A stretch of DNA of 64,000 bases from Desulfosudaceae bacterium (GTDB lineage: Bacteria; Desulfobacterota; Desulfobacteria; Desulfobacterales; Desulfosudaceae): NCBI GenBank assembly GCA_963674745.2, contig CAXXDV010000003.1, forward strand, positions 672,001-736,000, written 5' to 3'. Below, piece after piece: positions 7,187 to 36,640 of this stretch. Positions within the stretch are counted from its first letter, which is position 1. Each line of letters starts with the position of its first letter. Both the position numbers and the translations under genes were made by a program. The notes beneath the pieces are model-generated. The model worked only from the letters and a program-made list of their open reading frames with translations. It did not search any database and was not told where the DNA came from.

Positions 7187-7951
7187 TCAGCCGATAATCG
7201 AATCCAGCAATGAAGTGAGTTGACCCAGGGCCGGGCTGTCGTCCGGTATCTCCATCAGCGACCGGCCGGACAGATCAAAATCCGAAATCACCCGGTCCGG
7301 CTTGATACATCCGTAACACAGCATTTTTTGATCCGTGATCAGTTGAACCAGCTTGTTATCCGCTTCGTCAACACGGTTGAAAATGACGCCGGTTTTAATC
7401 GGGGCCATTTTAGGGATATCGTTGATAATCTCGTCGATCATGACTGCTGTTCTGACACTCCGCATGGAATTGTCGCAGACAATCACCGGGTAGTGAACTG
7501 TTTCGACCACCTTCCGGTTGACCTGTTCCAGGCCGGCTTCGGCGTCAATGATGATCACGTCATACTGGGATGAAATGGCAGCGATGGTTCCCCTGAGCAG
7601 TTCATTTAACGGACAGTAGCAGCCGATGTTATCGGTCCTGCCCATTACCAGGAGACTGAAATCGGGCGCTTCGTACAAGGCTTCGAGTATCAGATAATCG
7701 ATCATGTTGAAAAGGTCGGCCTTTTCTCCGGCGGCCTTTTTTTGCGCGGCTTTGCGGATAATTTTTTCCCGTGCCTGTCCGATTGTCTTCAAGTCTAAAA
7801 CGCCCAGCGAACCTTCAAGGCCCCTGGCCGGATCGGCGTCAACAAAAAGAACCCGTTTGCCCTGACCGGAGAAAATCTTGCCCGTGAGGGCGGACAGGAT
7901 TGTTTTCCCCACCCCGCCTTTGCCGGTAAACGCCATGATCAGGGGACTCAT
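7187..7951 (-). CDS. CooC/AcsF-type MinD-like ATPase (nickel insertase family)
   Basis: Deviant Walker A GKGGVGKT, DADP, Ni-binding GCYC motif, DAEAGLE. Confidence 0.88.
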   Translation of the reverse strand: MSPLIMAFTGKGGVGKTILSALTGKIFSGQGKRVLFVDADPARGLEGSLGVLDLKTIGQAREKIIRKAAQKKAAGEKADLFNMIDYLILEALYEAPDFSLLVMGRTDNIGCYCPLNELLRGTIAAISSQYDVIIIDAEAGLEQVNRKVVETVHYPVIVCDNSMRSVRTAVMIDEIINDIPKMAPIKTGVIFNRVDEADNKLVQLITDQKMLCYGCIKPDRVISDFDLSGRSLMEIPDDSPALGQLTSLLDSIIG

Positions 7952-7952
7952 A

Positions 7953-8723
7953 TCATGATCTCCTTTTTTTCCTTATCGCGGTTCTTATGGTGTCACAAAT
8001 CGGTTTGTCATCGCAGGCGCTGCAATCCAGGTCCGAACAACTGATGGTGCCGTCCGCTTCGAGTCTGAGCCGGGTGTGTTCCCCCCGGATGGCCGCCGCC
8101 CGTTTATGGATATCATCAATGGCGCTGATGACCTCCGGTATTTCCGCCACAATGATCACTTTGACATCTTTTATGTCGGGAAAAGCGTCCCTGTATGCAA
8201 AGATCAGGCACTGACCCAGAGCGGCCAGGGTGAACCCTTTTTTCATCAGGTCGTGGCTGATTCTGATCCAGAGCTTTCCGGGAATACTCCGGGTCATAAA
8301 ACCCGGAATTTTATTCGAGAGGTTTTTTGCGTTGTTAAAATCCGGCGACAGCGGATCAATATCCGGGCCCGGGTTGGTGATGACGGTTACGGCTATCGAT
8401 GCCGGCCCTTTTCCCATATCAGCCAATTCCGTTCCCAGTGTATAAACGGCATCCCGGCCGATATCCGATTCGCAGGTCCACAGAACGGCACTTGACGAAA
8501 TATGTGAGGGGGATCCGATTTCAAGAGCGGTATCACTTTCCGGGACGATAAAGGCGGTTTTCTTTCCGGATTTTTTTGAAACAAAACCAAGCCGTCCGGC
8601 TTCTTTGCCGTTATCAAAGGCGTAAGTCCTGAACGCGTTTTCATTTAGCATGTTCTCGATCAGATGGATCAGCGGCAGGTGGTCGCATACCGGCTGGTCT
8701 GTCCCGTTGCCCGTGTCAGTCAT
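7953..8723 (-). CDS. Truncated acetyl-CoA synthase (AcsB/CdhC) middle-domain-like protein with C-terminal Cys cluster
   Basis: LEIGSP; IPGFMTRS...LWIRISHDLMKKGFTLAALGQCL...AFPDIKDVKVII recalls the AcsB middle domain; C-terminal CSDLDCSACDDKPIC. Confidence 0.62.
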   Translation of the reverse strand: MTDTGNGTDQPVCDHLPLIHLIENMLNENAFRTYAFDNGKEAGRLGFVSKKSGKKTAFIVPESDTALEIGSPSHISSSAVLWTCESDIGRDAVYTLGTELADMGKGPASIAVTVITNPGPDIDPLSPDFNNAKNLSNKIPGFMTRSIPGKLWIRISHDLMKKGFTLAALGQCLIFAYRDAFPDIKDVKVIIVAEIPEVISAIDDIHKRAAAIRGEHTRLRLEADGTISCSDLDCSACDDKPICDTIRTAIRKKRRS

Positions 8724-9535
8724 TGGCGTTGCCTTTTGGGGGAAATGAAATTACCTCCGGCAATAACAGCGGCGCCGTAGGCCGCCATAAGTTGCGGATC
8801 AATATCCGAGTGTTTGACGGTTAGATTGGCCATTTTCTTCAACCGGGCCGTAAAAGCCGGCACCTTGGCCAGACCGCCTGACAGAATAATGTCGCTGTCG
8901 GTATCCGCACTGCTGAACATGGATGTCGTTTTGGAGGCGATGGAATCAATCACGCCGGCGATGACATCGTTTTTGTTTTTGCCGGCATTGACCTGGCTGA
9001 TGACACTGCTTTCGGCAAATACGGCGCAATTGCCGGCAATCATGAATTGCTCGGTGGCCTGTTCCGCGTAAGCTGAAATTTTTTCAAACGGAATCTGGAT
9101 GGCTTCGGCGACCATTTCCAGAAACTTACCGCTTCCGGCGGCACATCTTTCATTAACATAGTCCTGCTCGGCAAAGCCGCTATCGTCAATGGTAACGACT
9201 TTAATAAAAAAACCGCCGACATCAATAATGGTTCGGGCATTATTGTCAATCGAAAAGGCCCCGCGCGCAAGGCAGACGGGCTCGCTTAACCGGTAAGTCG
9301 CCTTGTTTACCAGCCTGGCACCGTATCCGGTTGCAACGGACTTTTTTACGGACCGGTTCCGTATTTTTTTCCCCCGGGCCGTGGCCGCCAGATCAAGCGC
9401 CTCGCGAAACGCGTGCCGGTACAATCTGTCAAACCGCCGGTCCATTTCGCGGCAGGCGTATCCGAGGAGCCTGGCATCTTCAACAAGGCAGATTTTCAGG
9501 AACCGTGTTCCGACGTCTATTCCGGCCGTTATCAT
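8720..9535 (-). CDS. ASKHA-family CoA-enzyme activase (HgdC/BcrA/BcrD-like), subunit 2
   Basis: GIDVGT, ATGYG, IDVGG, NERCAAGSG, NCAVFAES, LSGG, AYGAA motifs. Confidence 0.92.
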   Translation of the reverse strand: MITAGIDVGTRFLKICLVEDARLLGYACREMDRRFDRLYRHAFREALDLAATARGKKIRNRSVKKSVATGYGARLVNKATYRLSEPVCLARGAFSIDNNARTIIDVGGFFIKVVTIDDSGFAEQDYVNERCAAGSGKFLEMVAEAIQIPFEKISAYAEQATEQFMIAGNCAVFAESSVISQVNAGKNKNDVIAGVIDSIASKTTSMFSSADTDSDIILSGGLAKVPAFTARLKKMANLTVKHSDIDPQLMAAYGAAVIAGGNFISPKRQRQ

Positions 9536-10323
9536 GTTAAGCCTTTCATGGCGAAAACAGCCGCCCCCAGCGCCCCGGTTATTTGGGGGTCGATGTTCAG
9601 CCGGGTAAATTTCAGGCTCAGGTGCTTTTCAAGCTGCCGCACAACCCCCTGATTTTTTGATACGCCCCCGGTCAGACAGACATTTTTTTGAATTTCAATC
9701 ACCGTGGAAAGATCTGCGACCCTTTTGGCCACAGCATCAGAAAGCCCGGCGGCGATGTGTTTTAATTTCTTTTTTTCGTAAAGGGCTTCTAAAATTTCAA
9801 GTTCCATGAATATGCTGCATTTATTGGTAATATTTAATGGTTTGCGTGATTTTAACGTCAAGGGGCCTAAATCCTCAAGTTTTACCCCGATTGTTCTGGC
9901 CAGTATCTCCAGGGAGCGACCGGTGCCGGCCGCGCATTTATCGTTCATGGCGAAGTTTTTGATCAACCCCTTTTCATCGATTGAAATCACTTTGCAATCC
10001 TGGCCGCCGATATCGATGATCGTTCGAATGCTGTTATCGGCATAAAAAGCACCCATGCCATGGCAGGATATCTCGCTTAAATTCATATCCGCAAAAGGAA
10101 TACCGGTTCTTCCATATCCGGTACTGCAGCAGCGGGTAATATTGTCAAACGTCAGGCCGCTTGAGGAGAGTACCCGCTGCATGACGCAGGTCGCGGATTC
10201 TAAAACCGTCGGCTTTACCCTGATAATATCCGTGGCCAGGATCGATTGACCGTCCATGATCACGGCTTTTGCCGTAAGTGAACCCACATCACAACCGGCA
10301 AATATCTCTGTTTTCTGAATCAT
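9532..10323 (-). CDS. ASKHA-family CoA-enzyme activase (HgdC/BcrA/BcrD-like), subunit 1
   Basis: GCDVGSLTAK, STGYGR, IDIGGQD, NDKCAAGTGR, KCSIF, TGGV, GALGAA motifs. Confidence 0.93.
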   Translation of the reverse strand: MIQKTEIFAGCDVGSLTAKAVIMDGQSILATDIIRVKPTVLESATCVMQRVLSSSGLTFDNITRCCSTGYGRTGIPFADMNLSEISCHGMGAFYADNSIRTIIDIGGQDCKVISIDEKGLIKNFAMNDKCAAGTGRSLEILARTIGVKLEDLGPLTLKSRKPLNITNKCSIFMELEILEALYEKKKLKHIAAGLSDAVAKRVADLSTVIEIQKNVCLTGGVSKNQGVVRQLEKHLSLKFTRLNIDPQITGALGAAVFAMKGLT

Positions 10324-10324
10324 T

Positions 10325-10741
10325 TTATCCGATAAAATGGTTAACCGTCACGTTATCCCTGGTCAGCTGGAGAAAGCGGAAAAACAGTAGTGCCCATAAG
10401 AAATCTCCGAAAAGGGTTGAAAATGCCAGAAAGGTGGCCTGGCCGATGATAAAACACCAGGTAAATATCGCGAAAAGAATCAGTTTTGCGATGATTCCCA
10501 GCCAGATCACGACCCTGTTTTTCGTCAGGTCTGCGGCAACCGAGCAGTATCCGACACCGAAAATCACTACTGCCAGCATAAAAACCTTAAAAAACAGAAC
10601 CTGGTAAAAATTACCAGTCAGTGCCTGATCCCCCAGCAACAGCTTTGTCGCAAGAGTACCGAACGCCAGACCGAATACGCCCAATCCGATATTCCACAGC
10701 CCGCCCACAAAGAAAGCCTTCTTATAAAAATGGTAATTCAT
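10325..10741 (-). CDS. Small 4-TM membrane protein (paralog of 1970..2356), first gene of leftward operon
   Basis: Hydrophobic 138-aa ORF; GAGG SD; ends 1 nt before the activase start. Confidence 0.78.
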   Translation of the reverse strand: MNYHFYKKAFFVGGLWNIGLGVFGLAFGTLATKLLLGDQALTGNFYQVLFFKVFMLAVVIFGVGYCSVAADLTKNRVVIWLGIIAKLILFAIFTWCFIIGQATFLAFSTLFGDFLWALLFFRFLQLTRDNVTVNHFIG

Positions 10742-10797
10742 TTTTTTGCCTCATATTTATACGATTTTAAAAGCTTTTATTCGATATGATGGATGCC

Positions 10798-10812
10798 ATG
10801 ACAACAGGTCAT
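10798..10812. promoter_or_regulatory. Palindromic operator candidate ATGAC-N5-GTCAT
   Basis: ATGACAACAGGTCAT in the divergent intergenic region; same TGAC-N5-GTCA core as 15262..15274. Confidence 0.5.
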
Positions 10813-10837
10813 TTTTTTTGCACCCGTAGAATTTTAC

Positions 10838-10863
10838 TTGACACGGAATCTACCATTTGTCAA
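10838..10863. promoter_or_regulatory. TTGACA-N14-TGTCAA inverted repeat (divergent -35 boxes or operator)
   Basis: Perfect sigma70 -35 hexamer on both strands between divergent operons; -10 matches are weak. Confidence 0.45.
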
Positions 10864-10947
10864 TAATCAAAGCGTAGAACATTTAAGGTCGCCCCTTAAG
10901 AAATATTATGCTTTTTTATTCTTTAACGCTACGGTAGAGGTGCAGGT

Positions 10948-12132
10948 CTGTCAATCTTAGATGAAATAAAAAAAATCGCGGCAACAGATTACCATTCCCT
11001 CCTGGTGGATGAAAAAAAATCAGGCAGGAAAATTATCGGCTATTTTTGTTCTTATTTTCCGGAAGAAATCGTCCATGCGGCCGGTTTTGTGCCGTACAGG
11101 ATGAGAGCCGTCGGCAGTACCGGAACGACAAAAGGCGATATCTATTTTTCTTCGCTTAATTGCACATTTGTCAAACGGTGTTTTGATAAAGCCCTCCATG
11201 GTGACTTTGATTTTTTAGACGGGGTCGTCTTTTTGAACGGCTGTGACCATACCCGAAGAATGTATGACAACTGGCGGCATGCCGGGATTGATCCCGATTT
11301 TCGTTACATGTTTGTTGTGCCCCATAAGACCGGCAGGCTGGCGGAAAAAAGGTTTACGGCCGAGATGGAAACATTCAAGGCCGCCCTTGAAAAAGCCTTC
11401 AGCATCACCATATCTGAAGATTCGATCCGGGCCTCTATCCGTCTTTACAATCAGAAAAGATGTCTGCTGTCTGAATTGTACCGGCGACGGTATGAAAAAA
11501 AGGTCCCCATCAACGGCAGTGAAATCCTGAGTGTCATGCTTGCCATAACCGCCATACCGGTTGAACAGGCGATTGATCTCCTGGACAAGGTCCTGGCTGA
11601 AATATCCGGCAGGGATGTGGGCGCGGAAAACAAAATCAGGGTGTTTGTCAGCTCCGGGTGTATGGAAGAGGTTGACCATCTGCAGCTTATTGAAGAATGC
11701 GGTGGGATCGTGGTCGCTGATAACCTGTGTCTGGGGGCCCGTCATTTTGACGGTATGGTGGATGAAACGGCACCCGTATTTGAGGCCCTTTCCCGTCGAT
11801 ATCTTAACCACTTGTCCTGCCCGCGGATGGTCAATGATTTTGCCGGCCGGAACGCATTTCTGAAAAAGACGATTCAAGAATCAGGAGCCGAAGCTATCAT
11901 CGCCGAAAAACTGAAGTTTTGTGATATCTGGGGGGGCGAGCTGTATCTGATGCGGCAGGAAGCAGGAAAAAGCCATCTCCCCATACTCGCCCTTGAACGT
12001 GAGCTTTACGGCGGCGGCGAAGGACAGATCAGAACCAGGGTGCAGGCCTTTTTTGAACAGGTCAGAAACCGGGCGGTGGTTGATGCCGGTCTGCTGCCGA
12101 CTGCGGGCAGGGATTACCAGGCCAAACTGTGA
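10948..12132 (+). CDS. 2-hydroxyacyl-CoA dehydratase / class I benzoyl-CoA reductase (BcrC/BzdN-like) subunit with six conserved Cys; probable CTG start at 10948 (track start GTG 11005)
   Basis: GYFCSYFPEE, NCTFVK, NGCDHTRR, DNLCLG, SCPRM, KFCDIW, RTRVQAF motifs. Confidence 0.9.
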   Translation: MSILDEIKKIAATDYHSLLVDEKKSGRKIIGYFCSYFPEEIVHAAGFVPYRMRAVGSTGTTKGDIYFSSLNCTFVKRCFDKALHGDFDFLDGVVFLNGCDHTRRMYDNWRHAGIDPDFRYMFVVPHKTGRLAEKRFTAEMETFKAALEKAFSITISEDSIRASIRLYNQKRCLLSELYRRRYEKKVPINGSEILSVMLAITAIPVEQAIDLLDKVLAEISGRDVGAENKIRVFVSSGCMEEVDHLQLIEECGGIVVADNLCLGARHFDGMVDETAPVFEALSRRYLNHLSCPRMVNDFAGRNAFLKKTIQESGAEAIIAEKLKFCDIWGGELYLMRQEAGKSHLPILALERELYGGGEGQIRTRVQAFFEQVRNRAVVDAGLLPTAGRDYQAKL

Positions 12133-12158
12133 ACGAATGCATAAAGTATGGATGAAAA

Positions 12159-13511
12159 ATGACTGCACAGAAACATTATGAGTACATTGTCATCGGTACC
12201 GGCCCCGGGGGCGGGCCGGTGGCGCTGGAACTGGCCAAGGCCGGAAAAAGTGTCCTGGTCGTTGAAAGGGGCGCCTACCACAAACGGTTTCTCGGGTCAC
12301 CGCTGGGTGCCAGGCTTTCCGAACGGTTTTTCTGTTTCAACCGTTCAAAAGAAGGGGTCGTGCTTGAACGGGGGCTGACCGTGGGCGGATCATCCATGAT
12401 TTATCAGGGCAATGTTTTTGATCCGGCCAAACATCTTCTGAATGCCATGGGGCTTGATTTTTCTCCCGAGGCGGACGAGATCAAAAAAGAGATCGGTACC
12501 AATACCCTGCCGGACAGATTTTACAACCGGTTGACCAACGGTACGGCCAGGCTTCTGGAAGCCGCGGAAAAAATGGGCTGCCCGTTCGAGGAGCAGGAAA
12601 AGTTTGTGGAGCCGGACAAATGCCGGCTGGGTTGTGACTGGTGCATGATGGGATGCCCGTATGATGCCAAGTGGTCCACCAGGCGCCTGGTAGAAGAAGG
12701 TCTTGAAAAATATGGCGATAATTATGAGTTGCTGGTAAAAAGTCCGGTCGACAGGCTGCTCATGGATACCAATAAAAAAGTGACCGGGGTGAAGCTCAAA
12801 AACGGGCAACAGATTTTTGGAGACAATGTCATTCTGGCGGCCGGCGGTATCGGCTCGCCGGGTGTTATGCTCAGGTCCGGAGACAATCGGGTCGGCAAGC
12901 GGTTTTTTATGGACCCCATGCATATTCTTTACGGCATCAATAAACATAAAGACGGCGGCCTCTGGGGAGAACAGACGTTTACCCATGCCATTGAAACGTT
13001 CGCCCAAAGCGACGGTTTCATGATCGGCAACAGCTCGGCTTTCGGTACCTATGCGGTAATGAATATCGTCAGGCTCAAGGCTGCCATGAAAACATGGTAC
13101 AAGGCGCCGTTTGTCAAACAGGGTGTCGGTCTGTTCGTAAAGCTGGCTGAAGATGACAGGGGGGAGATTTTCCCCAATGAAAGAACCAGCAAGCCCATGA
13201 CCGAGAACGATAAAAAAAGAATGAAAAAAGGGACGGATATCGCCTCCGAACTGATGATAAAGGCCGGTGTCAAGCCGGATTCCATCGCCATGCTGGAGTG
13301 GGCCGGCGGGCACCCGGGCGGTACCATCGAAATGGGCAAGCTTGTTGACAGGACATTTCGGTCGGAATATCAGAACCTTTATGTTTGTGACGCCAGTGTA
13401 TTCCCGGTTTCACCGGGTTCACCGCCAAGCCTGTCGGTTATGGCCATGTCCAGGCTATTGTCAAAGTTCCTGTTGAAAAAAGTAAAGCCCGAAGACCGGT
13501 TTATCGATTAA
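12159..13511 (+). CDS. GMC-family FAD oxidoreductase with an Fe-S-type Cys motif
   Basis: IGTGPGG, VERG, VGGSS, LAAGGIGSP, HPGGT, NLYVCDASVFP motifs; CRLGCDWCMMGCP. Confidence 0.9.
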   Translation: MTAQKHYEYIVIGTGPGGGPVALELAKAGKSVLVVERGAYHKRFLGSPLGARLSERFFCFNRSKEGVVLERGLTVGGSSMIYQGNVFDPAKHLLNAMGLDFSPEADEIKKEIGTNTLPDRFYNRLTNGTARLLEAAEKMGCPFEEQEKFVEPDKCRLGCDWCMMGCPYDAKWSTRRLVEEGLEKYGDNYELLVKSPVDRLLMDTNKKVTGVKLKNGQQIFGDNVILAAGGIGSPGVMLRSGDNRVGKRFFMDPMHILYGINKHKDGGLWGEQTFTHAIETFAQSDGFMIGNSSAFGTYAVMNIVRLKAAMKTWYKAPFVKQGVGLFVKLAEDDRGEIFPNERTSKPMTENDKKRMKKGTDIASELMIKAGVKPDSIAMLEWAGGHPGGTIEMGKLVDRTFRSEYQNLYVCDASVFPVSPGSPPSLSVMAMSRLLSKFLLKKVKPEDRFID

Positions 13512-13530
13512 CTTAAATTGCAGGTCACCA

Positions 13531-14934
13531 ATGGCGCCAAATTTAGAAAAACTGAAACCCTATGAGTTGTTAAGGAAAAACGCGGGCGGGAATGTGCGAA
13601 AAGTTTTTTTCTCATTAAGTTCCCCGTACGTTGTAAAAGCTCTTTTATATCTTCTCAGACCGCTTTATATGAAAAAGGAAACCTGGTTCAACAGATCGTT
13701 CCGGTATTATGCGCTTTCACTGGGGGCGGGCAGCATGGCGCCTGAAGATATCAAGGCCATGCTTTTTTCTATCAGAGCAGTAGCCGCAAATTTTTTGAAA
13801 GCCATTGACGCCGCTGAAAACAATCAACCCGTTGTCTGGGTGGAGTGGATACTTCAGGGGGAAATCGGGGAGGCCTTTGACCTGACGACGATTAATCCTG
13901 AAGCGTTGAATGTTTACGGCAATTCCTTGAGTGGCGAGTATCCGCCGCTTTTGATTGAAGCCGCCGAAAAGCAGGGCACGCCGATTGAAAACTGCTCGGC
14001 CCAGAAACTGGCCATCGGCGCCTACATTTCAAAGCAGACACCGCCGCCGTCTTTAATTATCGGCGGATCCCATCCCTGCGATACCAGTGTTTCGGTTTAC
14101 CAGACACTTGAATATCTGACCGGTGCGCCTGCATTTATCCTCGACGTGCCATACTGGAAAGACGAAGGCGCTTATAAATATTTTGAAGATAATATTTGGG
14201 AACTGATCGCTTTTCTTGAAAAACATACCGGCAAACCGGCTGACTGGGATAAATTAAGAACCGTCCTGGAACGGGTCAATCAGATTAATTACTATCTGCG
14301 GGAAGTCTGTGAGATGGCGCGGGCCATTCCCTGTCCGTCTTCAATCAATACGCTTCTTTTTGCCTGGGCAACCCGTGAGATTGATGTGCGGTCGCCCCAT
14401 ATGCTTGATATGGCCAAGGCCCTTTATGAGAATTCAAAGAAGCGTTTCGATAAAGGGCAGGGCGTTATTAAAAACGAAAAAGTCCGCATCATCATGTGGT
14501 TTCCGCCCATCGCATTCTATCTTTATTTTTTTACATGGCTGGAAAAGGAGTTCGGTGCTGTTGTGGTCGCCGATTTTATCGGTCATATTTCAACGATTCA
14601 GGTAGACACCTCTTCAAAAGAATCCATGGTCGAAGGCCTGGCTAAAGCCCAGATGCACCTTGCCATGGGCCGGCAATGTCACGGTCCCATGGACTTTTTT
14701 ACCGATGAACTGAATAAAATGATAGATGACTATTCGCCGGACTGCATTTTCTTTATGGGCCACAACGGATGTAAGCACGGCTGGGCCGGTCTGAAGATTG
14801 TCCAGGACACCATTAAGCAAAGAGGGCTGCCGGCGCTTTATTTAAATATCGATATTATGGACAAACGCCATACGTCCGAGACCGAAATCAAGAAACAGAT
14901 TACAGATTTTATGGTTAGCCACGGTTGGGGATAG
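13531..14934 (+). CDS. 2-hydroxyacyl-CoA dehydratase / benzoyl-CoA reductase (BcrB/BzdO-like) subunit with N-terminal extension
   Basis: NPE, ENCSAQK, HPCDTS, LDVP, HNGCKHG, DIMDKR motifs. Confidence 0.88.
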   Translation: MAPNLEKLKPYELLRKNAGGNVRKVFFSLSSPYVVKALLYLLRPLYMKKETWFNRSFRYYALSLGAGSMAPEDIKAMLFSIRAVAANFLKAIDAAENNQPVVWVEWILQGEIGEAFDLTTINPEALNVYGNSLSGEYPPLLIEAAEKQGTPIENCSAQKLAIGAYISKQTPPPSLIIGGSHPCDTSVSVYQTLEYLTGAPAFILDVPYWKDEGAYKYFEDNIWELIAFLEKHTGKPADWDKLRTVLERVNQINYYLREVCEMARAIPCPSSINTLLFAWATREIDVRSPHMLDMAKALYENSKKRFDKGQGVIKNEKVRIIMWFPPIAFYLYFFTWLEKEFGAVVVADFIGHISTIQVDTSSKESMVEGLAKAQMHLAMGRQCHGPMDFFTDELNKMIDDYSPDCIFFMGHNGCKHGWAGLKIVQDTIKQRGLPALYLNIDIMDKRHTSETEIKKQITDFMVSHGWG

Positions 14935-15010
14935 CCCGGATATATCAAGAATTGATTCGACCCCGCGCACCTGACACATTCTGCGATACGCCACTCCGCC
15001 CGCTGATATT

Positions 15011-15069
15011 GTAGGGGCGGCCCCCTGTGGCCGCCCTGCACAAGGGCAACCACAGGGGGTTGCCCCTAC
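15011..15069. repeat. GTAG-type REP doublet (REPIN/BIME-like)
   Basis: GTAGGGGCGGCCCCCTGTGGCCGCCCT ... AGGGCAACCACAGGGGGTTGCCCCTAC: two hairpins in inverted orientation with GTAG/CTAC ends. Confidence 0.85.
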
Positions 15070-15106
15070 ATGGTTATCCGATAAAAGGGCAACCCCATAG
15101 GGGGGG

Positions 15107-15288: not shown

Positions 15289-15981
15289 GTGATTGTTGAA
15301 CCTATATCAATTTCAACGGGGAAGATGAAACGAGCCAGACAATCAGACCAGAAGACGGCCCGGCGTCAGGACATTTTAACGGCTGCCTGGGATTTGTTTT
15401 TAGAGTCATCCGGAGAATTGCCGACCGTAACACGCGTGGCGCGGCGGGTCGGTCTGTCAAAGGGAACCCTTTATCTCTATTTTTCTTCCAAAGAAGAATT
15501 ATTTTTTTCTGTTTTTGAAAGCCGGGTAGAGGAATGGGTGCGGTCAATTGAAACCGTCCTGGGAGAGAGGATGGCGGATATCGGTATAATAGACTTATCC
15601 CGTGCACTGACCGGGTATGCGGCTGAAAATCCCCTGGTGATCAAACTAGGCACCATCACCAAGAGTTTTATTCAAAACAACATCGATGCCAACATTATTT
15701 ATGATTGCGATAAGCGCATCGTGACCCTTGTCGATATGGCGGCCGGGGTAATCTCGGAACGATTTTCCTTTATCACCCGCAAGCAGGCCTCGCAGATGCT
15801 GGCACGGGGTTATGCCCTGACGCTCGGGCTTTGGCAGGTACTGGATCGGCCACCGGCGGTCAGCAGCCGGTTACTGGATGAGGGAATCGATATGTTTATG
15901 CCGGAATTTGAGAAAAATATTGTTGAGACAACGGAAATATTTTTAAACGGCTATTTGCGTTACCTGAAAGAAACCGGATGA
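15289..15981 (+). CDS. TetR/AcrR family transcriptional regulator
   Basis: VTRVARRVGLSKGTLYLYFSSKEELF HTH; start may be ATG 15325. Confidence 0.93.
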   Translation: MIVEPISISTGKMKRARQSDQKTARRQDILTAAWDLFLESSGELPTVTRVARRVGLSKGTLYLYFSSKEELFFSVFESRVEEWVRSIETVLGERMADIGIIDLSRALTGYAAENPLVIKLGTITKSFIQNNIDANIIYDCDKRIVTLVDMAAGVISERFSFITRKQASQMLARGYALTLGLWQVLDRPPAVSSRLLDEGIDMFMPEFEKNIVETTEIFLNGYLRYLKETG

Positions 15982-16003: not shown

Positions 16004-17377
16004 ATGAAAAGAATTTTCTTGTTTTTGTTGATTGTCGTAATGCCGGTCAGTGGCCGGGCATTGACGTTGCAGGAGGCGGTGTCCGTCGGGTTAAAAAAGA
16101 ACCTGGAATTGTCGGCCGCGGAAAAGCAGCAGGACGCGGCCCGGGCCGAGGCGTCCGGACAAATGCGCGATTTCTTCCCCAAACTTCTGGCGGAAGGTAA
16201 ATACATGGATTTGACGGATCAGGGAAGCATGGAAATCCCTCAAGGGGCATATAATATGGGTGTTCCCATGACGCCCATACCCGCTTATGATGTGGCGACA
16301 TACTTAAACGACAAGACCATGCATGACTATTCCTTCACCCTGGCCCAGCCGATTCTGGGGCTTTATAAAATCAACAAAGCCTGGCGTTTAAAAAAGAAAA
16401 TAGCCGCCATTGCCGGGGCCGATGTCGGGGTCTTGAAGCATAAAGTCACCATGGACGTGATCGAAGCCTTCTGTCATGTCAAGATGGTGGAAAAAAAGAT
16501 TGATCTGGCAAAAACCAATATCACGGAACTTACCGCTCACCTGGCGCGAATCCAAAGCCTCCACCGGGTGGGGCATGTGCTGGACCGGGACCTTTTCCAG
16601 GTCCAGCTGGGGCTGGACAATGCCCGGCTGGAACTGGAAATAGCCGAGCGTGAACGATTGCTGGCCATTGAAAAACTGTTCTGGGTGATGGGCGGGGAGG
16701 TTGAGCCACCGGTTTTTGACGAGCCGGTGGTAGAATTGCCCATGGATGTCGGTGTCAATGACGTTGACGCGGCCCGTTTTGTTAAAAGCGGTCTTCAAAA
16801 TCGCTGGGAAATGAAGAAAGCCGTTGAAGCGGTCAAGGCCGCCGGACTCCAGGTGGGACTGGCGGTCAGTGAATATCTGCCGGAGTTGAACGTATTTGCC
16901 CGATACACGGAGCAGGACGGCGACCATTCTTTGCCGGACAAAAACACGATTGTCGGAGTAGAGGTGACGGCCACACTTTTTGAATGGGGAAAGACCGGTA
17001 AACAGAAGACCGCGGCGGGCATGCGCCTGGACAGCGCCCGAAAGAACCTTGAAAATGCCAAAGAAATGATCCGCCTTGATGTGCTGCTGGCACTGAAGAC
17101 CTTTGAAGACAGCCGCTCCAGGCACCGGCTGGCCGATCAGAGCTTAACGCTGGCCGAAGAATCCCTGCGCATCACCCAGAAGCAGTATGAAGCGGGCCGG
17201 GCCACCATAACCGACCTTTTGAATGACCAGACGGTTTTTCACCAGGCCCGAACAGACCTTGCCCTGGTCGCGGACCAGATGATTATCGATTATGCCGCGG
17301 TGCGGACGGCAGCCGGAATGCCGCCGCTTCCCGACATGGATATCAACGAATCTCGTTATACAGGTGACACATATTAA
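16004..17377 (+). CDS. TolC family outer-membrane efflux protein
   Basis: Signal peptide, LTLQEAV, DFFPKL, EYLPEL, LFEWG, YEAGRAT. Confidence 0.92.
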   Translation: MKRIFLFLLIVVMPVSGRALTLQEAVSVGLKKNLELSAAEKQQDAARAEASGQMRDFFPKLLAEGKYMDLTDQGSMEIPQGAYNMGVPMTPIPAYDVATYLNDKTMHDYSFTLAQPILGLYKINKAWRLKKKIAAIAGADVGVLKHKVTMDVIEAFCHVKMVEKKIDLAKTNITELTAHLARIQSLHRVGHVLDRDLFQVQLGLDNARLELEIAERERLLAIEKLFWVMGGEVEPPVFDEPVVELPMDVGVNDVDAARFVKSGLQNRWEMKKAVEAVKAAGLQVGLAVSEYLPELNVFARYTEQDGDHSLPDKNTIVGVEVTATLFEWGKTGKQKTAAGMRLDSARKNLENAKEMIRLDVLLALKTFEDSRSRHRLADQSLTLAEESLRITQKQYEAGRATITDLLNDQTVFHQARTDLALVADQMIIDYAAVRTAAGMPPLPDMDINESRYTGDTY

Positions 17378-17388
17378 AGAGGCGCCTT

Positions 17389-18435
17389 ATGAAGAAAGTT
17401 TTTTTGTTGCTGCTCGTTTTTTCGTTGCTGTGCTACGGGTGTAAGGAAAGCGAAAAAGAAGATGCGCAGGTCCTGCCCATCCCCGTCAAGGTGCGCAAGA
17501 TCGAAACAAGTGTTCTGACAAACACCATCCGTCTGACAGGTACCATCCGTCCCCGGGAGAAAGCGGGGCTGTCATTCAAGGTGCCGGGCCGGATTGCGGA
17601 TATACTGGTCGATGAAGGCGACCGGATCGGCAAAGGCGATGTGGTGGCCCTGCTGGAAGCTAATGATTACGAGCTGAACGTCAAAATGGCGGAAGCGCAA
17701 GTTAAAGCCCTGGCCCCGGAATACCAGCGGCAGCGGTCCCTGCTCAAGGATAAAGCCATTACCCAGGCCGAGTTCGAGCAGTTTGAAGCCCAGTACAAGG
17801 TGGCCACCTATAAATTGAACCTGGCCAGAAACAACCTGAAGGACTGCCAATTAAAAGCGCCTTTCGACGGCGAGATCGCCCGGCGCCAGGCCGATTCCGG
17901 TGAACTGGCTGCGCCTGACCGGGTCATCGTTCTATTAATGGATATGAGCGGGGTGGAGGCGGAGATCGGCGTGCCCGACCTTGATATCAACCGGTTTAAA
18001 CTGGGTGAGGAAGTGGCTTTTACCATGAGCGCGTTTCCGGAAAAAAAGTTTACCGGCAAAGTCGTACTCATCGGTTCCATGCCGGATCCGGTTTCCAGAA
18101 CCTATCGGGTCCGGGTCAGCCTGCCCAATCCGGGCGGCCTGCTCAAGGCCGGCATGATCGTGACCATGAATTTTAAGATCAAAAACGGGGGGAAGAAACT
18201 GGCCGGCGCACCGCTTTCCGCCATTCTTCATTCGGTTGACGCCGGTCCGTACGTATTTGTGGTCAAAGACGGTAAGGCCGTCAAAAAGGATATTGTCCTC
18301 GGTCCCATGTTTCAGAAGCTGGTGGGAGTGGAAAGCGGTCTGGAAGATGGTGACATGCTGATCGTCGAGGGACAGCATTACGTCCGGCCCGGACAGCAAA
18401 TCAAGATTATGAACCAGACGACCCAGGCAGGTTGA
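17389..18435 (+). CDS. RND efflux periplasmic adaptor (MFP), lipoprotein
   Basis: Lipobox-like CYGC; FKVPGRI, LKAPFDG, DPVSRTY, LKAGM, SGLEDGD. Confidence 0.92.
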   Translation: MKKVFLLLLVFSLLCYGCKESEKEDAQVLPIPVKVRKIETSVLTNTIRLTGTIRPREKAGLSFKVPGRIADILVDEGDRIGKGDVVALLEANDYELNVKMAEAQVKALAPEYQRQRSLLKDKAITQAEFEQFEAQYKVATYKLNLARNNLKDCQLKAPFDGEIARRQADSGELAAPDRVIVLLMDMSGVEAEIGVPDLDINRFKLGEEVAFTMSAFPEKKFTGKVVLIGSMPDPVSRTYRVRVSLPNPGGLLKAGMIVTMNFKIKNGGKKLAGAPLSAILHSVDAGPYVFVVKDGKAVKKDIVLGPMFQKLVGVESGLEDGDMLIVEGQHYVRPGQQIKIMNQTTQAG

Positions 18436-18436
18436 T

Positions 18437-21400
18437 ATGAACATCCCCAAAGCGTCCATTCAAAGAGGGCCGGCCCTGATCGTGGCCGTTGTCCTGATCG
18501 TCATCTGGGGTATTTTCGGGTACCGGGATATCCCCAAAAGAGAATACCCGGAAGTTGATTTCCCGGCCTGCAACATCATAACGATCTGGCCGGGTGCTTC
18601 ACCTGAAAAGGTGGAACAGCTTATCAGCGAGAAAATAGAGGACGCGGCCGGCAAGGCGGAAAATATCGAAAAAACCGTTTCCTGGAGCCGGACGGGTATC
18701 AGTATTGTTTTTGCCTATGTCGACACCGACAAATTGTTTCTGGACAAGCAGAAGATCTGGGACGAAGTCAAGGAAGAGGTGGACCGGGTCCGGGATGAGA
18801 TGCCCGAGGGAATTTATTTCGGGCCTTTTGTGAACGACCGCTTTTCCGAAGTAAAATCCATGCTCATTTCACTGTCTTCGGACGAAAGGTCTTATCCGGA
18901 GCTGATCGATTACGCCGAAAGTCTGTCCGATGAATTAACCTATCTTGATACCGTAAACCGGTCGGAAATTTCCGGAAATACCCGGGAAGTGATTTATCTT
19001 GTTTCAACCGAGCGTTTTAATGAATACGGTGTCCATCTTCTGGATGTCATGCGCGCCCTTTCCGCGCGAAACATCACCATGAGCGGCGGAATCCTGAGCC
19101 TTTCCGGCAATGAAATGATTATCGAGCCTTCGGGTGAGTTCAACAGCCTGTCTGAAATCGGTGACGTGGTTATCAATGTCAGCCCGGAAACCGGCCATGC
19201 CGTGTACCTGAGGGACCTGTTTACCATCAGGCGGGGACTGGAAGACCCGCCCGACCAGATGGCCCATGTCAACGGCAAACGGGCGATCCTGGTGGATGTG
19301 GAGCTGAAAAAAGGGGAGAACGTCATCCGCATGGGCGAGCAGGTGGAAGAAATGCTCGAGCGGGCGAAAAAGACGTTTCCTTCGGACGTAAATATCAATG
19401 TGGTGGTCAGCCAGGCTGAGGTTGTGTCTGAAAAACTGAGTGAATTTTCCAGGAACCTCTATCAGGGCATTATCCTTGTTTTGGCGGTGGCCCTTTTATC
19501 CATCGGCATCAGGCCGGCCGTTATCATGGCTGTGGCCATTCCCCTGTCTCTTTTATTTACCTTTGGTGTTCTGCCCGTCATGGGACGTGACATGGAAAAC
19601 ATGGTCATCACCGGACTGATCGTGGCCCTGGGGATGATCGTGGACAATGCCGTGGTGATTACCGAAAATATCGACCGTTATATGCAAATGGGGTATGACA
19701 AAGTTCGTGCCGCCTGGACCGGAACCGGCGAGGTGGCCATCCCCATGCTCAGCGCCACGGCCACGACCATCGCGGCTTTCGGACCGCTGGCCTTTATCCC
19801 CGGAACCGTGGGCGAGTTCATCGTCTCCATTCCCCTGGTGGTGATCATTGCCTTGAGTGCTTCTTACGCCATTGCCATTACCATTACCCCCTGGATGTGT
19901 TCCCGTATCCTTGTCGCCAGAGAGGTCGAGCAGAAACCGGAGAAATCAGCCATAAACGAACAACTGCCCGGTTTTTGGGGCAGAATCGGTCGCGTTTACA
20001 ATACTGTGATCGGCGTTTCATTAAAGCGGCCGAAACTGGTGATCATGGCGGCCCTGCTTGTTTTTATTGTCTCCCTGATGTTGATTCCCAGGCTGGGGAT
20101 GCAGTTTTTTCCCCTGGCGCAGAAAGACCTTTTTTTAATCGAAGTCTGGGCGCCGGAGGGTACCAATGTCGATAAAACCAGAGAAATCGCCGCGCAGGCA
20201 GAGGATATTTTAAAGGAAGAAAAGAAGATTAAATCCTTTGTAACCTATACCGGTATCGGTTCACCCCGGATTGAACTCGGTGTCATACAGCAGAACCTGA
20301 CGCCCAATTATGCCATGATCTGGGTGAAAACGCACGACTGGCATGAAACCAACGACCTGGTGCCGGAGATAAGAGAGAAAATAAGAAGAAACGTGGTCGG
20401 TGCCCGGGTGGAAACAAAACTTCTGGAAACCGGCCCGCCGGTCGGGGCACCGGTGTCCATAGAGATCCAGGGGGAAGATATCGATATTTTGAGAGGCCTC
20501 TCCGAACAGGTCCAGCAGTTGATTGCCGGACAGAAAGGGGTTTTTGCCATTCATGACGATTTCGGGACCAACGCCTACAAGATCAGCGGTGATTTTGACG
20601 AGGACGAAATAAAAAGGATCGGCCTGACCAACCAGGAAATCGCCCTGTCGCTGATGGCCAATTTTTCCGGGCTGCATGTCACCAATTTCAGAGAGGACGA
20701 CAAGACCATTCCGATCAAGCTGAAAGCCGCCGATTACCTGATTGATGACTTTAATGACCTGGCCGAAACCCGGGTGCGTTCGTCTCTTACCCAAAAAGAA
20801 ATTGCCATAAAGCAGGTGGCAAAAATTACGGCCCGGCCCTATGTGCCGGTGATCCGCCACAAAAACGGCAAAAGAACCTTAAAAGTCAACGCCTTTGTGG
20901 AAGAAGGGGTTCTGGCCGATACTATTCTTAAGAATATCTGGCCGGACATCGAGAAGCTGGAAATACCGGAAGGTTATCATCTGAAAAAGGCCGGTGAGTT
21001 TGAAGAGCGCGAAAAGGCTTTCGGCCGTATTTCCCGGGCTTTCATGAATGCGATCCTGCTCATGCTGCTGGTGCTGATGATCAATTTCAACTCCGTTAAA
21101 AAGACCCTGATTATTTTTTCCACCATACCCCTTTCCCTGGTCGGTTCGGTAACCGGGTTGTTTGTCACGGGTTACCCTTTCGGTTTCATGGCGTTTCTGG
21201 GGGTGGTGGCCTTAAGCGGGATTGTGGTCAATAACGCCATTATCCTGATTGATTTTATCGATAAAAGAATAAAGGATGGTGAAAAGCCGTCGTCTGCCAT
21301 CCGGAACGCAGGGCGGTTAAGAATGCGGCCGATTTTTGTGACAACCGCCACCACCATGGGCGGCATGCTGCCCCTGGGCCTGGCCGGCGGGCCGCTTTTC

Positions 21401-21523
21401 GCGCCCATGGCCTGGGTGATTATTTTCGGTTTGGCCGCTTCCACGGTACTGACCCTGATCGTGGTGCCTAATTTATATTATGTGCTGATCGGTAAGAAAC
21501 TCGAAAGTGCCATGGCGGTTTAG
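18437..21523 (+). CDS. RND efflux transporter permease (AcrB family)
   Basis: 1028 aa; PGASPEKVE, LGMIVDNAVV, GIVVNNAIIL, RMRPIFVT motifs. Confidence 0.95.
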   Translation: MNIPKASIQRGPALIVAVVLIVIWGIFGYRDIPKREYPEVDFPACNIITIWPGASPEKVEQLISEKIEDAAGKAENIEKTVSWSRTGISIVFAYVDTDKLFLDKQKIWDEVKEEVDRVRDEMPEGIYFGPFVNDRFSEVKSMLISLSSDERSYPELIDYAESLSDELTYLDTVNRSEISGNTREVIYLVSTERFNEYGVHLLDVMRALSARNITMSGGILSLSGNEMIIEPSGEFNSLSEIGDVVINVSPETGHAVYLRDLFTIRRGLEDPPDQMAHVNGKRAILVDVELKKGENVIRMGEQVEEMLERAKKTFPSDVNINVVVSQAEVVSEKLSEFSRNLYQGIILVLAVALLSIGIRPAVIMAVAIPLSLLFTFGVLPVMGRDMENMVITGLIVALGMIVDNAVVITENIDRYMQMGYDKVRAAWTGTGEVAIPMLSATATTIAAFGPLAFIPGTVGEFIVSIPLVVIIALSASYAIAITITPWMCSRILVAREVEQKPEKSAINEQLPGFWGRIGRVYNTVIGVSLKRPKLVIMAALLVFIVSLMLIPRLGMQFFPLAQKDLFLIEVWAPEGTNVDKTREIAAQAEDILKEEKKIKSFVTYTGIGSPRIELGVIQQNLTPNYAMIWVKTHDWHETNDLVPEIREKIRRNVVGARVETKLLETGPPVGAPVSIEIQGEDIDILRGLSEQVQQLIAGQKGVFAIHDDFGTNAYKISGDFDEDEIKRIGLTNQEIALSLMANFSGLHVTNFREDDKTIPIKLKAADYLIDDFNDLAETRVRSSLTQKEIAIKQVAKITARPYVPVIRHKNGKRTLKVNAFVEEGVLADTILKNIWPDIEKLEIPEGYHLKKAGEFEEREKAFGRISRAFMNAILLMLLVLMINFNSVKKTLIIFSTIPLSLVGSVTGLFVTGYPFGFMAFLGVVALSGIVVNNAIILIDFIDKRIKDGEKPSSAIRNAGRLRMRPIFVTTATTMGGMLPLGLAGGPLFAPMAWVIIFGLAASTVLTLIVVPNLYYVLIGKKLESAMAV

Positions 21524-36400: not shown

Positions 36401-36640
36401 CGTCAGCAGGGAAAGAAACTGGGTTACACGCATGATGTCCGCAAAATCGGTTCCGCCGGATGCTTTGGCATGATATCGGCGATCGCCGATAATCGCCATC
36501 TCACCATATTCGATTACATTCTGCAGCAAGCGGTCTCCGGTTGAACTGGGGACCATCCAGTCCGGCGTATCAGGCCGGATAAATACCGGTGTATTATCAA
36601 GTTCAAATCTTACCCAGTCCTCGAAACGGTTTTTCTTCAC
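33497..36640 (-). CDS. Radical SAM + degenerate SPASM-like + ArsM-like methyltransferase + Cys-rich (DUF5714-like) fusion protein
   Basis: CNLSCRHC, TGGEP, LTNG, SLDG; YGCGSP, DLGSGAG, SNCVINL, GECIAGA; CMLCG..CVFCG..CEDGHFVCDSCH, HGPEHH, GGACGFWGTCGAA, RCCQR. Confidence 0.9.
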   Translation of the reverse strand: MKKNRFEDWVRFELDNTPVFIRPDTPDWMVPSSTGDRLLQNVIEYGEMAIIGDRRYHAKASGGTDFADIMRVTQFLSLLTSPEIEDYDGRAGALQLNHLKECWLHITDQCNLSCRHCLFSCSAKTQTTLSLESIKTVVSDAYGLGTRVFYLTGGEPLVHPDFQQICRLVLFDFPDTMLAILTNGILLPEQRSFLQSLPSDRLFLQVSLDGLEDVNDDLRGKGSFAKIVNGLTALDGLGLQTTLSMAVTPDNRHQMTDMVSLAARHNINSVHYMWLLNTGRASGLSYVPADALFSDLVQSHALAKKNNVTIDNISNLSAQVFSTPGTRYDLGNAGWESLAIGPNGSVYPTPALIGRKDTVCGHISENLENVWRNSPALASLRELSIVSDTNYNANPLKYIIGGGDIDHSYYAGGAYVGHDPYVPLYNRLALWLMVQSAQIVEERPWPQIRRKMGEKLLHCIQEGEGVALTHSNCVLTFSGTRGVVGEFYSTAAEDENTDITNPVCYPDAEMPHIPPAARIRSYGCGSPVLDAAIKPGETVVDLGSGAGVECYIAARKVGPKGSVTGIDMLDNMLALARRPMDEVADNLGYRNVEFKKGFLEQLPVSDKTVDVVISNCVINLSEDKRRTFSEIFRVLTPGGRIFISDVVTDTPCPPAIQNDAKLRGECIAGALVQPHLIAILESAGFCHIRIVKRFFYKEVLGHHFYSVTYTAFRPMPEEKSPAMYPGPYAAVVTDDGELLLRGQVSEINWPYDAQGDSAIFKLDAMGNVDNIEAANACSCGIPPEGAVSCDCSVPPEDSRSAGDKPAPVTALFMNNDPKHSRDCMLCGKPLIYFSEDRQETCVFCGNKLMANAACEDGHFVCDSCHGSDMVDIVKHVCTHTDLVDMIDLINQLRRHPAFSVHGPEHHFAVPGVITATYKNLGGDLTEKDIVTAIERGRAVPGGACGFWGTCGAAVGVGIAFGIILKSNPLAPGPRQIIQKVSEAIISRLNRTEAARCCQREVWTALKAAAELSETYLPLPLKADGDVQCRQQGRNRECIQKDCPYFKI

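Follow-up and report, generated by a model that had tools for sequence, protein, structure and literature searches.

Positions 7187 to 14934 of a 64,000-nucleotide (nt) stretch of a Desulfosudaceae genome (contig CAXXDV010000003.1, positions 672,001 to 736,000; the whole stretch is called the window) hold nine genes which we consider, with a probability of roughly 0.55, to encode a new ATP-coupled reductase of the benzoyl-coenzyme A (CoA) reductase (BCR) type. This enzyme would act on a lipophilic acyl-CoA, with an iron-sulfur GMC flavoprotein as its partner and with an accessory module formed by a small relative of acetyl-CoA synthase (ACS), named mini-ACS, and a CooC-like ATPase. The locus had been singled out by a first-pass annotation made from the sequence letters, and the open reading frame (ORF) listing and the Pfam and NCBIfam scans confirmed all nine expected genes, at the positions expected, as two divergent operons (Table 1). 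The genes encode, among others, two HGD-D proteins (alpha and beta), two ATPases of the BcrAD/BadFG type (the activases ActA and ActB) and a small membrane protein. Most are coupled, as had been stated: on the minus strand ActA/ActB and ActB/mini-ACS overlap by 4 nt and the membrane protein/ActA and mini-ACS/CooC junctions have 1-nt spacers, and the plus-strand intergenic gaps measure 26 nt (beta/GMC) and 19 nt (GMC/alpha). In what follows, G000 is the genome of the window, C1 and C3 are contigs of it, L-numbers are related loci and G-numbers are other genomes.

The two HGD-D proteins and the two activases all scored above the gathering thresholds of HGD-D and BcrAD_BadFG, which places them in the superfamily of the BCR and the 2-hydroxyacyl-CoA dehydratases. 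Six cysteines of beta (C15, C53, C80, C242, C272 and C306, in the numbering of a 375-residue version of the protein) align with cysteines of BzdN and of the double-cubane cluster protein (DCCP), and are retained in 32-35 of 35 homologues. The available text of PMC11971306 describes BzdN as holding its [8Fe-9S] double cubane by six Cys, and BzdO as having a [4Fe-4S] cluster ligated by Cys95, Cys128, Cys380 and a water molecule. The alpha residues C155, C183 and C414 align with these three ligands of BzdO and are retained in 31-33 of 33 homologues; three of the six double-cubane Cys are absent from alpha. By this alignment, beta would carry the ligand set of an [8Fe-9S] double cubane and alpha a [4Fe-4S] cluster held by three Cys with an open site at one iron, and alpha is predicted to be the substrate-binding subunit. 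A Glu matching BzdO Glu65 is conserved in alpha, and an invariant Asp184 directly follows its second Cys ligand.

The beta gene announced by the first-pass annotation is present, but its start had to be moved upstream, to 57 nt ahead of the first canonical codon. The reading frame is open from position 10927, and the ORF caller begins it at GTG 11005 (375 residues). The upstream part of the frame matches the N-termini of 394-residue orthologues residue for residue, a GAGGTG lies 5 nt before CTG 10948, and a start at GTG 11005 would drop 19 residues that align with the orthologues. The start was therefore placed at CTG 10948 (394 residues), and this non-canonical codon is most likely the one used.

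The two activases are about 32% identical and each has both iron-sulfur Cys, as the same annotation had read them. These residues are nearly invariant: C130 and C169 of ActA are retained in 42 of 42 sequences, and C131 and C170 of ActB in 12 and 13 of 13 sequences, respectively. Both proteins passed the general model TIGR00241 (cut-off 125.4; ActA 232.7 bits, ActB 166.6 bits) and remained under the equivalog cut-offs, ActA with 188.2 bits for BzdQ (cut-off 380.2) and 163.5 for BcrA (578), ActB with 112.7 for BzdQ (380.2) and 86.9 for BcrD (312.9), its BcrA score being below the cut-off as well. Both activase lines are kept in the related loci L001, L002, L004, L015-L023, L070 and L080.

A six-Cys subunit, a three-Cys subunit and an ATPase made of two different activases together form the ligand pattern of class I BCR, with the cofactors themselves predicted from the aligned ligands. 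The Bzd and Mbd enzymes (BzdNOPQ and MbdONQP; PDB 8S02 and 9G87) likewise combine a six-Cys plus three-Cys heterodimeric HGD-D core with two different BcrAD-type ATPases bearing the bridging-cluster Cys, and the catalytic Glu is common to both systems. The differences from them are an identity of about 25-30% at most, an alpha subunit that is about 60 residues longer N-terminally, and, in comparison with BzdO, a Ser in the place of His131 together with the invariant Asp after the second Cys ligand.

Distance from the characterised families was judged by NCBIfam cut-off scores and by the ranks of the family profiles against solved structures (PDB). The beta profile matched BzdN (7e-63), HadC (1e-58), MbdN (2e-54) and DCCP (2e-52), and the alpha profile matched BzdO (1.5e-54), HadB (7e-44), MbdO (6e-35) and DCCP (1e-30). 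Against the NCBIfam models, beta reached 191.3 bits for double_cubane (NF040772; cut-off 350), 135.3 for HadC (700), 121.8 for BcrC (421.2) and 121.5 for BzdN (453.8), and alpha reached 73.5 for double_cubane (350), 57.3 for HadB (750), 45.1 for BzdO (448.6) and 34.7 for BcrB (486.6); double_cubane was thus the top model for both subunits, below its cut-off. No match or paralogue in the whole genome of the window passed the BzdN or DCCP cut-offs. With scores so far below the cut-offs, the subunits fall outside the characterised clades.

These scores bear on the possibility that the locus encodes an ordinary class I BCR for benzoate degradation. A heterodimeric ATPase next to a heterodimeric Fe-S core, with BzdN and BzdO as the nearest solved structures, is what such an enzyme should have, but all four subunits lie far under the Bzd and Bcr equivalog cut-offs and BzdO His131 is not conserved. 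Moreover, the genome of the window (99.96% complete) holds nothing that passes the cut-offs for Oah (best score 102.8 against 464.45) or for the dienoyl-CoA hydratase (85.9 against 292.5), which argues against a standard benzoate-pathway BCR and makes this possibility extremely remote.

A relationship to the 2-hydroxyacyl-CoA dehydratases deserves closer weighing, although we consider it unlikely. In such an enzyme, a single ATP-driven electron would be recycled in a redox-neutral elimination, and the GMC protein would make or consume the hydroxy or oxo substrate. The HGD-D family membership of alpha and beta accords with it, as do HadC and HadB as second-best solved relatives, the three-Cys site that alpha has in common with HadB, and the absence of BzdO His131, as in HadB. 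HadBC/HadI (PDB 3O3M) indeed has in common with the window's enzyme the fold family, the open-site cluster of alpha and an ATP-dependent archerase activator. However, HadC is described as binding one [4Fe-4S] cluster through three Cys (available text of PMC7317905), a single cubane, against the six conserved Cys of beta, which are those of BzdN and DCCP; HadI is a homodimer, against two distinct activases that are conserved in the manner of BCR; and the alpha profile is ten orders of magnitude better on BzdO than on HadB. Both subunits are also under the HadBC equivalog cut-offs. The earlier preference for a BCR-like over a dehydratase-like enzyme is therefore upheld by the six-Cys pattern of beta, by the two conserved activase lines and by BzdN and BzdO as top profile matches.

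Since double_cubane is the best NCBIfam match of both alpha and beta and the six-Cys motif is present, a DCCP-type reductase for a small molecule without CoA (acetylene, azide, hydrazine or the like), with the CoA-related genes as coincidental neighbours, was also considered. DCCP and DCCP-R (PDB 6ENO and 7YYL) have the six [8Fe-9S] ligands in common with beta and pair with an ATP-dependent reductase partner, and the physiological substrate of DCCP is given as not known in the available text of PMC7317905, which leaves room for such a substrate. However, both scores are far under the 350-bit cut-off, and DCCP is a homodimer with a cluster in each subunit, whereas the enzyme here is a heterodimer with one double-cubane subunit, whose alpha lacks the full double-cubane Cys set and resembles the CoA-binding BzdO and HadB. 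Acyl-CoA ligase, thiolase and acyl-CoA dehydrogenase genes are moreover syntenic in several lineages and occur together at a second locus of this genome. A reductase of this kind is thus very unlikely.

The BCR-type reading is carried further by the recurrence of the gene set. Related genome loci were found using a mini-ACS alignment as query, a single-protein query having matched nothing; metagenome loci were found using a 20-sequence mini-ACS alignment, and neighbours in the genome loci were assigned by tblastn. All 10 genome loci with mini-ACS homologues contain an activase; 8 of them have the HGD-D pair, 8 have CooC and 6 have GMC, and where HGD-D is missing (two loci) the contig ends beside the activase. 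In the 20 metagenome loci, an activase was found in 17, HGD-D in 12, CooC in 15 and GMC in 4, most misses falling on contigs of 1.5-6 kb; in 8 extended genome loci, alpha/beta and activase are present in all 8 and CooC in 7. Wherever there is sufficient DNA, the 30 mini-ACS loci show an activase or HGD-D neighbour, with one exception (L014). The recurrence of the gene set in independent genomes and metagenomes rules out a chance arrangement, and the accessory genes proved co-conserved in all three sets of loci when the cluster-conservation check that had been called for was made.

An order of 12 genes, ActA-ActB-mini-ACS-CooC-thiolase-ligase-membrane protein-nitroreductase-ferredoxin-alpha-beta-GMC, was found in L016, L019, L020 and L070, and in part in L001, L002, L004 and L022/23. 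Beyond the genes of the window's locus, close orthologous clusters encode an acyl-CoA ligase, an SCP-x-type thiolase, acyl-CoA dehydrogenases, and a nitroreductase with a ferredoxin. They have neither the CoA-transferase of amino-acid fermentation nor a 2-hydroxyacid dehydrogenase, and contain an AMP-forming ligase instead, which counts against a dehydratase; in the distant mini-ACS groups, on the other hand, each alpha/beta pair (at times two or three of them) comes with a single activase, in the manner of dehydratases. Beta orthologues with 52-76% identity form at least 120 clusters (at 90% identity), and close ones (E ≤ 1e-90) occur in 7 of 401 phylum-sampled genomes, among which G082 has the full cluster. 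Source names on the family's proteins and loci include Smithella, Syntrophaceae, Desulfatibacillum, and Spirochaetota and Ignavibacteriales metagenome-assembled genomes.

The GMC protein lies between the two HGD-D genes and has the Cys motif C155-x3-C159-x2-C162-x3-C166, retained in 12-13 of 13 homologues, so that the description of an Fe-S GMC flavoprotein at this place was correct. The GMC fold, the FAD-binding GxGxxG motif and the Cys cluster motif in the N-terminal half are those of iron-sulfur GMC dehydrogenases. Its AlphaFold2 model (pLDDT 80) has as top 9 Foldseek matches the large subunit of Gluconobacter fructose dehydrogenase and the alpha subunit of the FAD-dependent glucose dehydrogenase (FAD-GDH) of B. 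cepacia (PDB 6A2U and 7W2J; TMq 0.72-0.75), which also have in common with it an FAD plus a Cys iron-sulfur motif. In the available text of PMC6719666, a surface 3Fe-4S cluster of the FAD-GDH catalytic subunit is described as passing electrons from FAD to a partner subunit. In comparison with these enzymes, the GMC protein is about 15% identical, shorter (450 against about 540 residues) and cytoplasmic, has the Cx3Cx2Cx3C spacing and no genes for cytochrome or hitchhiker subunits nearby, and in this locus it would be paired with an Fe-S radical enzyme system. The iron-sulfur GMC is a known design in view of this precedent, and it is its pairing with a BCR-type enzyme that is not known. The active-site His385 is retained in 12 of 13 homologues, and GMC enzymes typically oxidise CH-OH groups, which would suit the hydroxy or oxo substrate of a dehydratase; the second catalytic residue of GMC oxidases, however, seems to be deleted in one alignment, which speaks against this role.

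The small membrane protein has four hydrophobic stretches, as judged by inspection, and homologues (39-46% identity) in L002, L004, L016, L019, L020, L022/23 and L070. In the Atlas, the flavoprotein corresponds to generic GMC clusters and the membrane protein to unnamed clusters. A conserved protein of about 225 residues with a hydrophobic C-terminal stretch lies between mini-ACS and CooC in L026, L028, L029, L010 and L074, and occupies a place that the 138-residue membrane protein might fill in the window's group; Pfam SCP2 was reached by 1 of 3 of its sequences tested (E 2e-4), which is a lead only.

The mini-ACS is related to ACS as its name implies, but it is not the whole enzyme in small: it consists of the middle domain of ACS plus four Cys. 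In the phmmer search, residues 135-228 aligned with ACS residues 409-500 and no further. The AlphaFold2 model built from 64 family members (pLDDT 91.4, pTM 0.85) gave 23 Foldseek matches with E ≤ 0.001, and among the rows listed, down to 2e-6, all were ACS or CdhC chains, with alignments of about 170-190 columns and a TMq of about 0.55. From these fold matches the protein was identified as the A2 (CoA-binding) domain of ACS. Neither the A1 domain nor the nickel-binding A3 domain with its A-cluster is present, and the NCBIfam cdhC models gave 35-46 bits against cut-offs of 356-372. At the C-terminus, the motif C229-x4-C234-x2-C237-x5-C243 lies on a loop between two long helices in the model and does not align with ACS; the 256-residue protein terminates 13 residues past this motif, so that the nickel-binding part of ACS is missing. 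The nickel ligands of the ACS A-cluster include a Cys-Gly-Cys site, and no such motif was found in the mini-ACS.

Among 124 full-length members, C234, C237, C243, R154 and G70 are conserved in 100%, W152 in 97% and C229 in 94%. The sequence W152-I-R154 aligns with the W-V-R motif of ACS, so that the A2 fold and the Trp/Arg motif of the CoA region are common to ACS (AcsB/CdhC) and the mini-ACS. According to the available text of a preprint (bioRxiv 10.1101/2024.08.05.606187), acetyl-CoA is bound mainly on A2 in the C. autoethanogenum ACS, the adenine being stacked on Trp405 near a Lys/Arg patch; W152 may be the equivalent of Trp405, as counted by position arithmetic only. An exhaustive search with a hidden Markov model found 408 representatives of the family at E ≤ 0.001 and 213 at E ≤ 1e-10, and the best 150 are 95-319 residues long, which defines it as a stand-alone family. 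Short-ORF mini-ACS genes occur in about 34 of the 401 phylum-sampled genomes, and the other matching genomes (about 94) have true ACS/CdhC genes only.

Two motifs place the adjoining ATPase in the CooC/AcsF family, a deviant Walker A (GKGGVGKT) and a CxC (C111 and C113, both retained in 23 of 23 homologues). Among solved structures it matches CooC1 best (3kje; full-length alignment, E 5e-11), C-Y-C being aligned on C-Y-C. A CooC-family ATPase with CxC adjoining the ACS-like gene is likewise found in ACS systems, as the maturase AcsF/CooC; in contrast to these, the cluster here has no carbon monoxide dehydrogenase or corrinoid protein.

Whether the mini-ACS associates with the reductase was addressed by complex prediction using alpha 64-467, beta 1-350 and mini-ACS 16-256 with custom alignments. 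The median score was 0.60 (runs 0.64, 0.49 and 0.60), against 0.00 for the best of 3 controls and 0.00 when alpha was swapped for an unrelated protein; contact agreement between the runs is 59% or higher, and the partner pLDDT 70 or higher. Of the solved complexes, 116 of 157 attained the pass mark, as did 2 of 215 mismatched pairs, and scores of 0.60 or less at the pass mark were found for 18 of the 157 solved complexes and for both mismatches. The docking was considered as a weak pass because this low-score band holds few solved complexes and both mismatches; it raises only modestly the odds that mini-ACS is a subunit-like partner of alpha/beta, for which it is weak support.

The same data could be read as a new Ni-Fe-S enzyme, in which mini-ACS and CooC build a catalytic nickel or heterometal site and perform C-C or C-S (thioester) chemistry on a radical delivered by alpha/beta. 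The CooC gene with its CxC pair adjoins the mini-ACS gene in 8 of 10, 15 of 20 and 7 of 8 loci of the three sets, the ACS CoA-binding domain is combined with an invariant Cys motif, and the docking on alpha/beta lends weak support. A mini-ACS given its metal by CooC and docked on alpha could then link the ATP-dependent generation of a radical with reactions of a thioester or C-C bond at a CoA site inherited from ACS, a proposal that we hold to be improbable; examples would be a carbonylation or decarbonylation, or the capture by CoA of a radical from an unreactive lipophilic compound. We judge the Ni-Fe-S enzyme as a whole to be just as doubtful, since the Cys-Gly-Cys motif and the A3 domain are absent, a sister cluster works without the mini-ACS/CooC pair, and four Cys in 15 residues would more simply bind a [4Fe-4S] cluster or zinc. 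Nor was any conserved CooT-like or His-rich small ORF found within 4 kb of mini-ACS/CooC in 48 sequences (the window and 47 loci), the sole His-rich small ORF, in L076, not being conserved.

The sister cluster just mentioned belongs to G366 and G040, two genomes of the order of the window's genome. It holds GMC, beta, alpha, ActB, ActA, two acyl-CoA dehydrogenases, a ligase and a thiolase, as well as a GntR regulator, a nitroreductase and a ferredoxin, and has no mini-ACS, CooC or membrane protein; the mini-ACS and CooC of these genomes are located in another HGD-D cluster (L071). When 39 beta sequences were placed in a tree, that of the window fell within a 9-row clade (support 100/100) made up of mini-ACS-bearing clusters and both G366 copies, and mini-ACS-linked betas are also found in two other well-supported clades. 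As a sister cluster lacks the pair and several clades have it, mini-ACS and CooC were considered as an accessory module that joins several enzyme lineages rather than as part of the core.

The nature of the substrate was approached through the genome of the window. At C1:2045027-2049314, a thiolase (66% identity to that of L016), a nitroreductase (57%) and a ferredoxin-ligase fusion (56%) lie side by side, with three or four acyl-CoA dehydrogenase genes, a cupin and a START-domain protein as neighbours. The fusion (C1:2044958-2047084, that is L078:8958-11084, minus strand) is a 708-residue protein with an N-terminal 2x[4Fe-4S] ferredoxin followed by an AMP-forming acyl-CoA ligase, which are separate genes in the orthologous clusters. 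The genome also holds nine beta-like loci or alpha/beta pairs, eight GMC paralogues, four CooC-like genes and a second mini-ACS. The latter (246 residues; L034, C1:1296001-1316000) is found with two alpha/beta pairs, three activases, a GntR regulator and a 508-residue helical protein, and its cluster adjoins a DUF1302-DUF1329-BNR-MMPL set, a type of set discussed as an uptake system for hydrophobic substrates in the available text of PMC13101534. The genes of the second locus and the neighbours of this mini-ACS cluster point to CoA-ester catabolism of hydrophobic compounds. The suggestion that a lipophilic acyl- or aryl-CoA is the substrate therefore gains from the ligase, thiolase, acyl-CoA dehydrogenase, START and SCP2-like neighbours, although the nature of the substrate is one that we infer.

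Two other features of the paralogous loci were recorded. Mostly helical proteins of 430-510 residues without a Pfam family, with about 23-24% mutual identity, are encoded directly upstream of HGD-D beta at L034:16173-17699(-), L036:11831-13132(-) and L037:12740-14083(-), and none is present in the window cluster. In the closest paralogous cluster (L035, C1:1336931-1338014; 51% identity), beta matches in two frames and may be frameshifted near its 3' end.

Several observations weigh against the BCR-type reductase with its accessory module. The second-best solved relatives of beta and alpha are dehydratase subunits, HadC (1e-58) and HadB (7e-44). The catalytic His131 of BzdO is replaced by Ser186 in alpha, and by Ser also in the family consensus, so that proton delivery must differ from that of BCR. 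Without the Cys-Gly-Cys nickel site that ACS has, the mini-ACS can be given a nickel role by analogy only. In L014, mini-ACS and CooC stand alone in 14.7 kb, with no activase or HGD-D within 6-7 kb, and the G366 and G040 cluster dispenses with mini-ACS, CooC and membrane protein. At C3:812896-817781, a CooC paralogue accompanies GMC and alpha/beta without a mini-ACS, and CooC may thus serve something other than the mini-ACS. The docking was only a weak pass, obtained with alpha residues 1-63 left out of the model, and the acyl-CoA ligase is generic and gives no hint as to the substrate.

Under the BCR-type reading, the locus would encode a new subfamily within the radical enzymes that comprise the class I aryl-CoA reductases and the 2-hydroxyacyl-CoA dehydratases. 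Its proteins would work as follows, with a direction and stoichiometry of electron flow that we infer. A lipophilic carboxylic acid would enter a catabolic route through activation by the acyl-CoA ligase, and the nitroreductase-like flavoprotein and the ferredoxin would supply electrons. In an ActA/ActB heterodimer with a bridging [4Fe-4S] cluster, ATP hydrolysis would drive a low-potential electron into beta and then into alpha. In the alpha/beta heterodimer, the double cubane of beta would serve as electron relay and the open iron of alpha would face the thioester of the CoA substrate, giving a ketyl-type radical on the acyl-CoA that would then undergo reduction or loss of a substituent. The iron-sulfur GMC could perform a second, flavin-dependent redox step or pass electrons via its cluster, and acyl-CoA dehydrogenases, a hydratase and the SCP-x-type thiolase would complete the degradation. 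The mini-ACS, an A2 domain that would have gained a four-Cys metal site, may dock on the alpha/beta core, and the CooC-type ATPase may load or mature its metal centre.

Table 1. Features of the reductase locus and its flanks (window positions; lengths in amino acids, aa).
Feature	Position	Strand	Remarks
Enoyl-CoA hydratase, 265 aa	6260-7057	-	Pfam ECH_1 1.3e-43; 129 nt downstream of the CooC gene
CooC-type P-loop ATPase, 254 aa	7187-7951	-	Pfam AAA_31 + CbiA
Mini-ACS, 256 aa	7953-8723	-	Pfam CdhC 1.9e-7, 31.5 bits (cut-off 24)
Activase B (ActB), 271 aa, BcrAD/BadFG ASKHA ATPase	8720-9535	-	Pfam 1.3e-30
Activase A (ActA), 263 aa, second distinct ATPase subunit	9532-10323	-	Pfam 6.5e-51
Small membrane protein, 138 aa	10325-10741	-	No Pfam or NCBIfam family
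Promoter-like site TTGACA-18-AATAAT	10838-10867	+	11/12 consensus matches; divergent intergenic region
HGD-D beta, BzdN/BcrC-like	10948-12132	+	Pfam HGD-D 1.1e-82
GMC-family FAD protein, 450 aa	12159-13511	+	Pfam GMC_oxred_N + GMC_oxred_C
HGD-D alpha, 467 aa, BzdO/HadB-like	13531-14934	+	Pfam HGD-D 7.3e-55
GC-rich 28-nt inverted repeat	15010-15070	+	86% complementary, 5-nt loop; 76 nt past the alpha stop
TetR-family regulator	15289-15981	+	Pfam TetR_N + TetR_C_34; weak match to Bacillus-type FadR
RND efflux operon	16004-21523		Flank beyond the TetR gene

Concerning expression of the locus, promoter-like sites are not enriched in the divergent region (8 seen against 10.2 expected from shuffles), and no palindrome occurs both in the divergent promoter region and upstream of the TetR gene. 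The inverted repeat past the alpha gene probably marks the end of the plus-strand operon. In L027, L033 and L073, the gene immediately preceding HGD-D beta encodes a TetR protein 37-42% identical to that of the window, and the window's TetR may on this ground control the enzyme operon besides, or instead of, the RND pump. The enoyl-CoA hydratase gene was tried as a part of the core and rejected, as it is not co-conserved with the locus: tblastn found it in 0 of 10 genome loci, and more distant genes of this family (27-39% identity) lie several kb off in L028/L029, L071 and L076. The hydratase may nevertheless be a member of the pathway.

One further flanking gene encodes a TerC protein (Pfam), and the remainder of the 64-kb window is unrelated to the enzyme locus. 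A 1047-residue fusion of radical SAM, class I methyltransferase and DUF5714 domains is encoded at 33497-36640 (minus strand), in an operon that also holds DUF2064, DUF3047, a GT2 glycosyltransferase and a VTT-domain disulfide oxidoreductase. At 43133-51657 (plus strand), two neighbouring giant subtilases (1326 and 1450 residues) with GEVED domains are followed by a PKD-repeat protein.

The supposition that no described system unites this core with GMC, ACS-like and CooC partners was sustained by a literature search, which found no description of the combination; nothing relevant on GMC, CooC or acetyl-CoA synthase was found in PMC12016498, PMC6849830 and PMC7317905. The ORM2 'Magic' cluster of methanogenic benzene activation was examined as a candidate and rejected, as it is GlcDEF-like and unrelated according to the available text of PMC13101534.

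The ATP-driven 'archerase' enzymes perform the most strongly reducing chemistry known from biology and, to our knowledge, the only reactions with assigned substrates among them are arene reduction and 2-hydroxyacyl-CoA dehydration. We likewise know of no counterpart of mini-ACS, CooC, the iron-sulfur GMC or the membrane protein in described BCR operons. The locus defines a widespread, uncharacterised branch of the archerases and brings to it three partners not linked to this enzyme class in the searched literature: a relic of ACS, an ATPase of the nickel-chaperone type and an iron-sulfur GMC protein. With nine alpha/beta pairs in its genome, the organism of the window is a natural test organism for this branch. 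If the substrate were identified, a new anaerobic pathway for a recalcitrant lipophilic acid could come to light, and knowing what mini-ACS and CooC do could uncover either a novel role for the CoA domain of ACS or a new step in the maturation of metal clusters.

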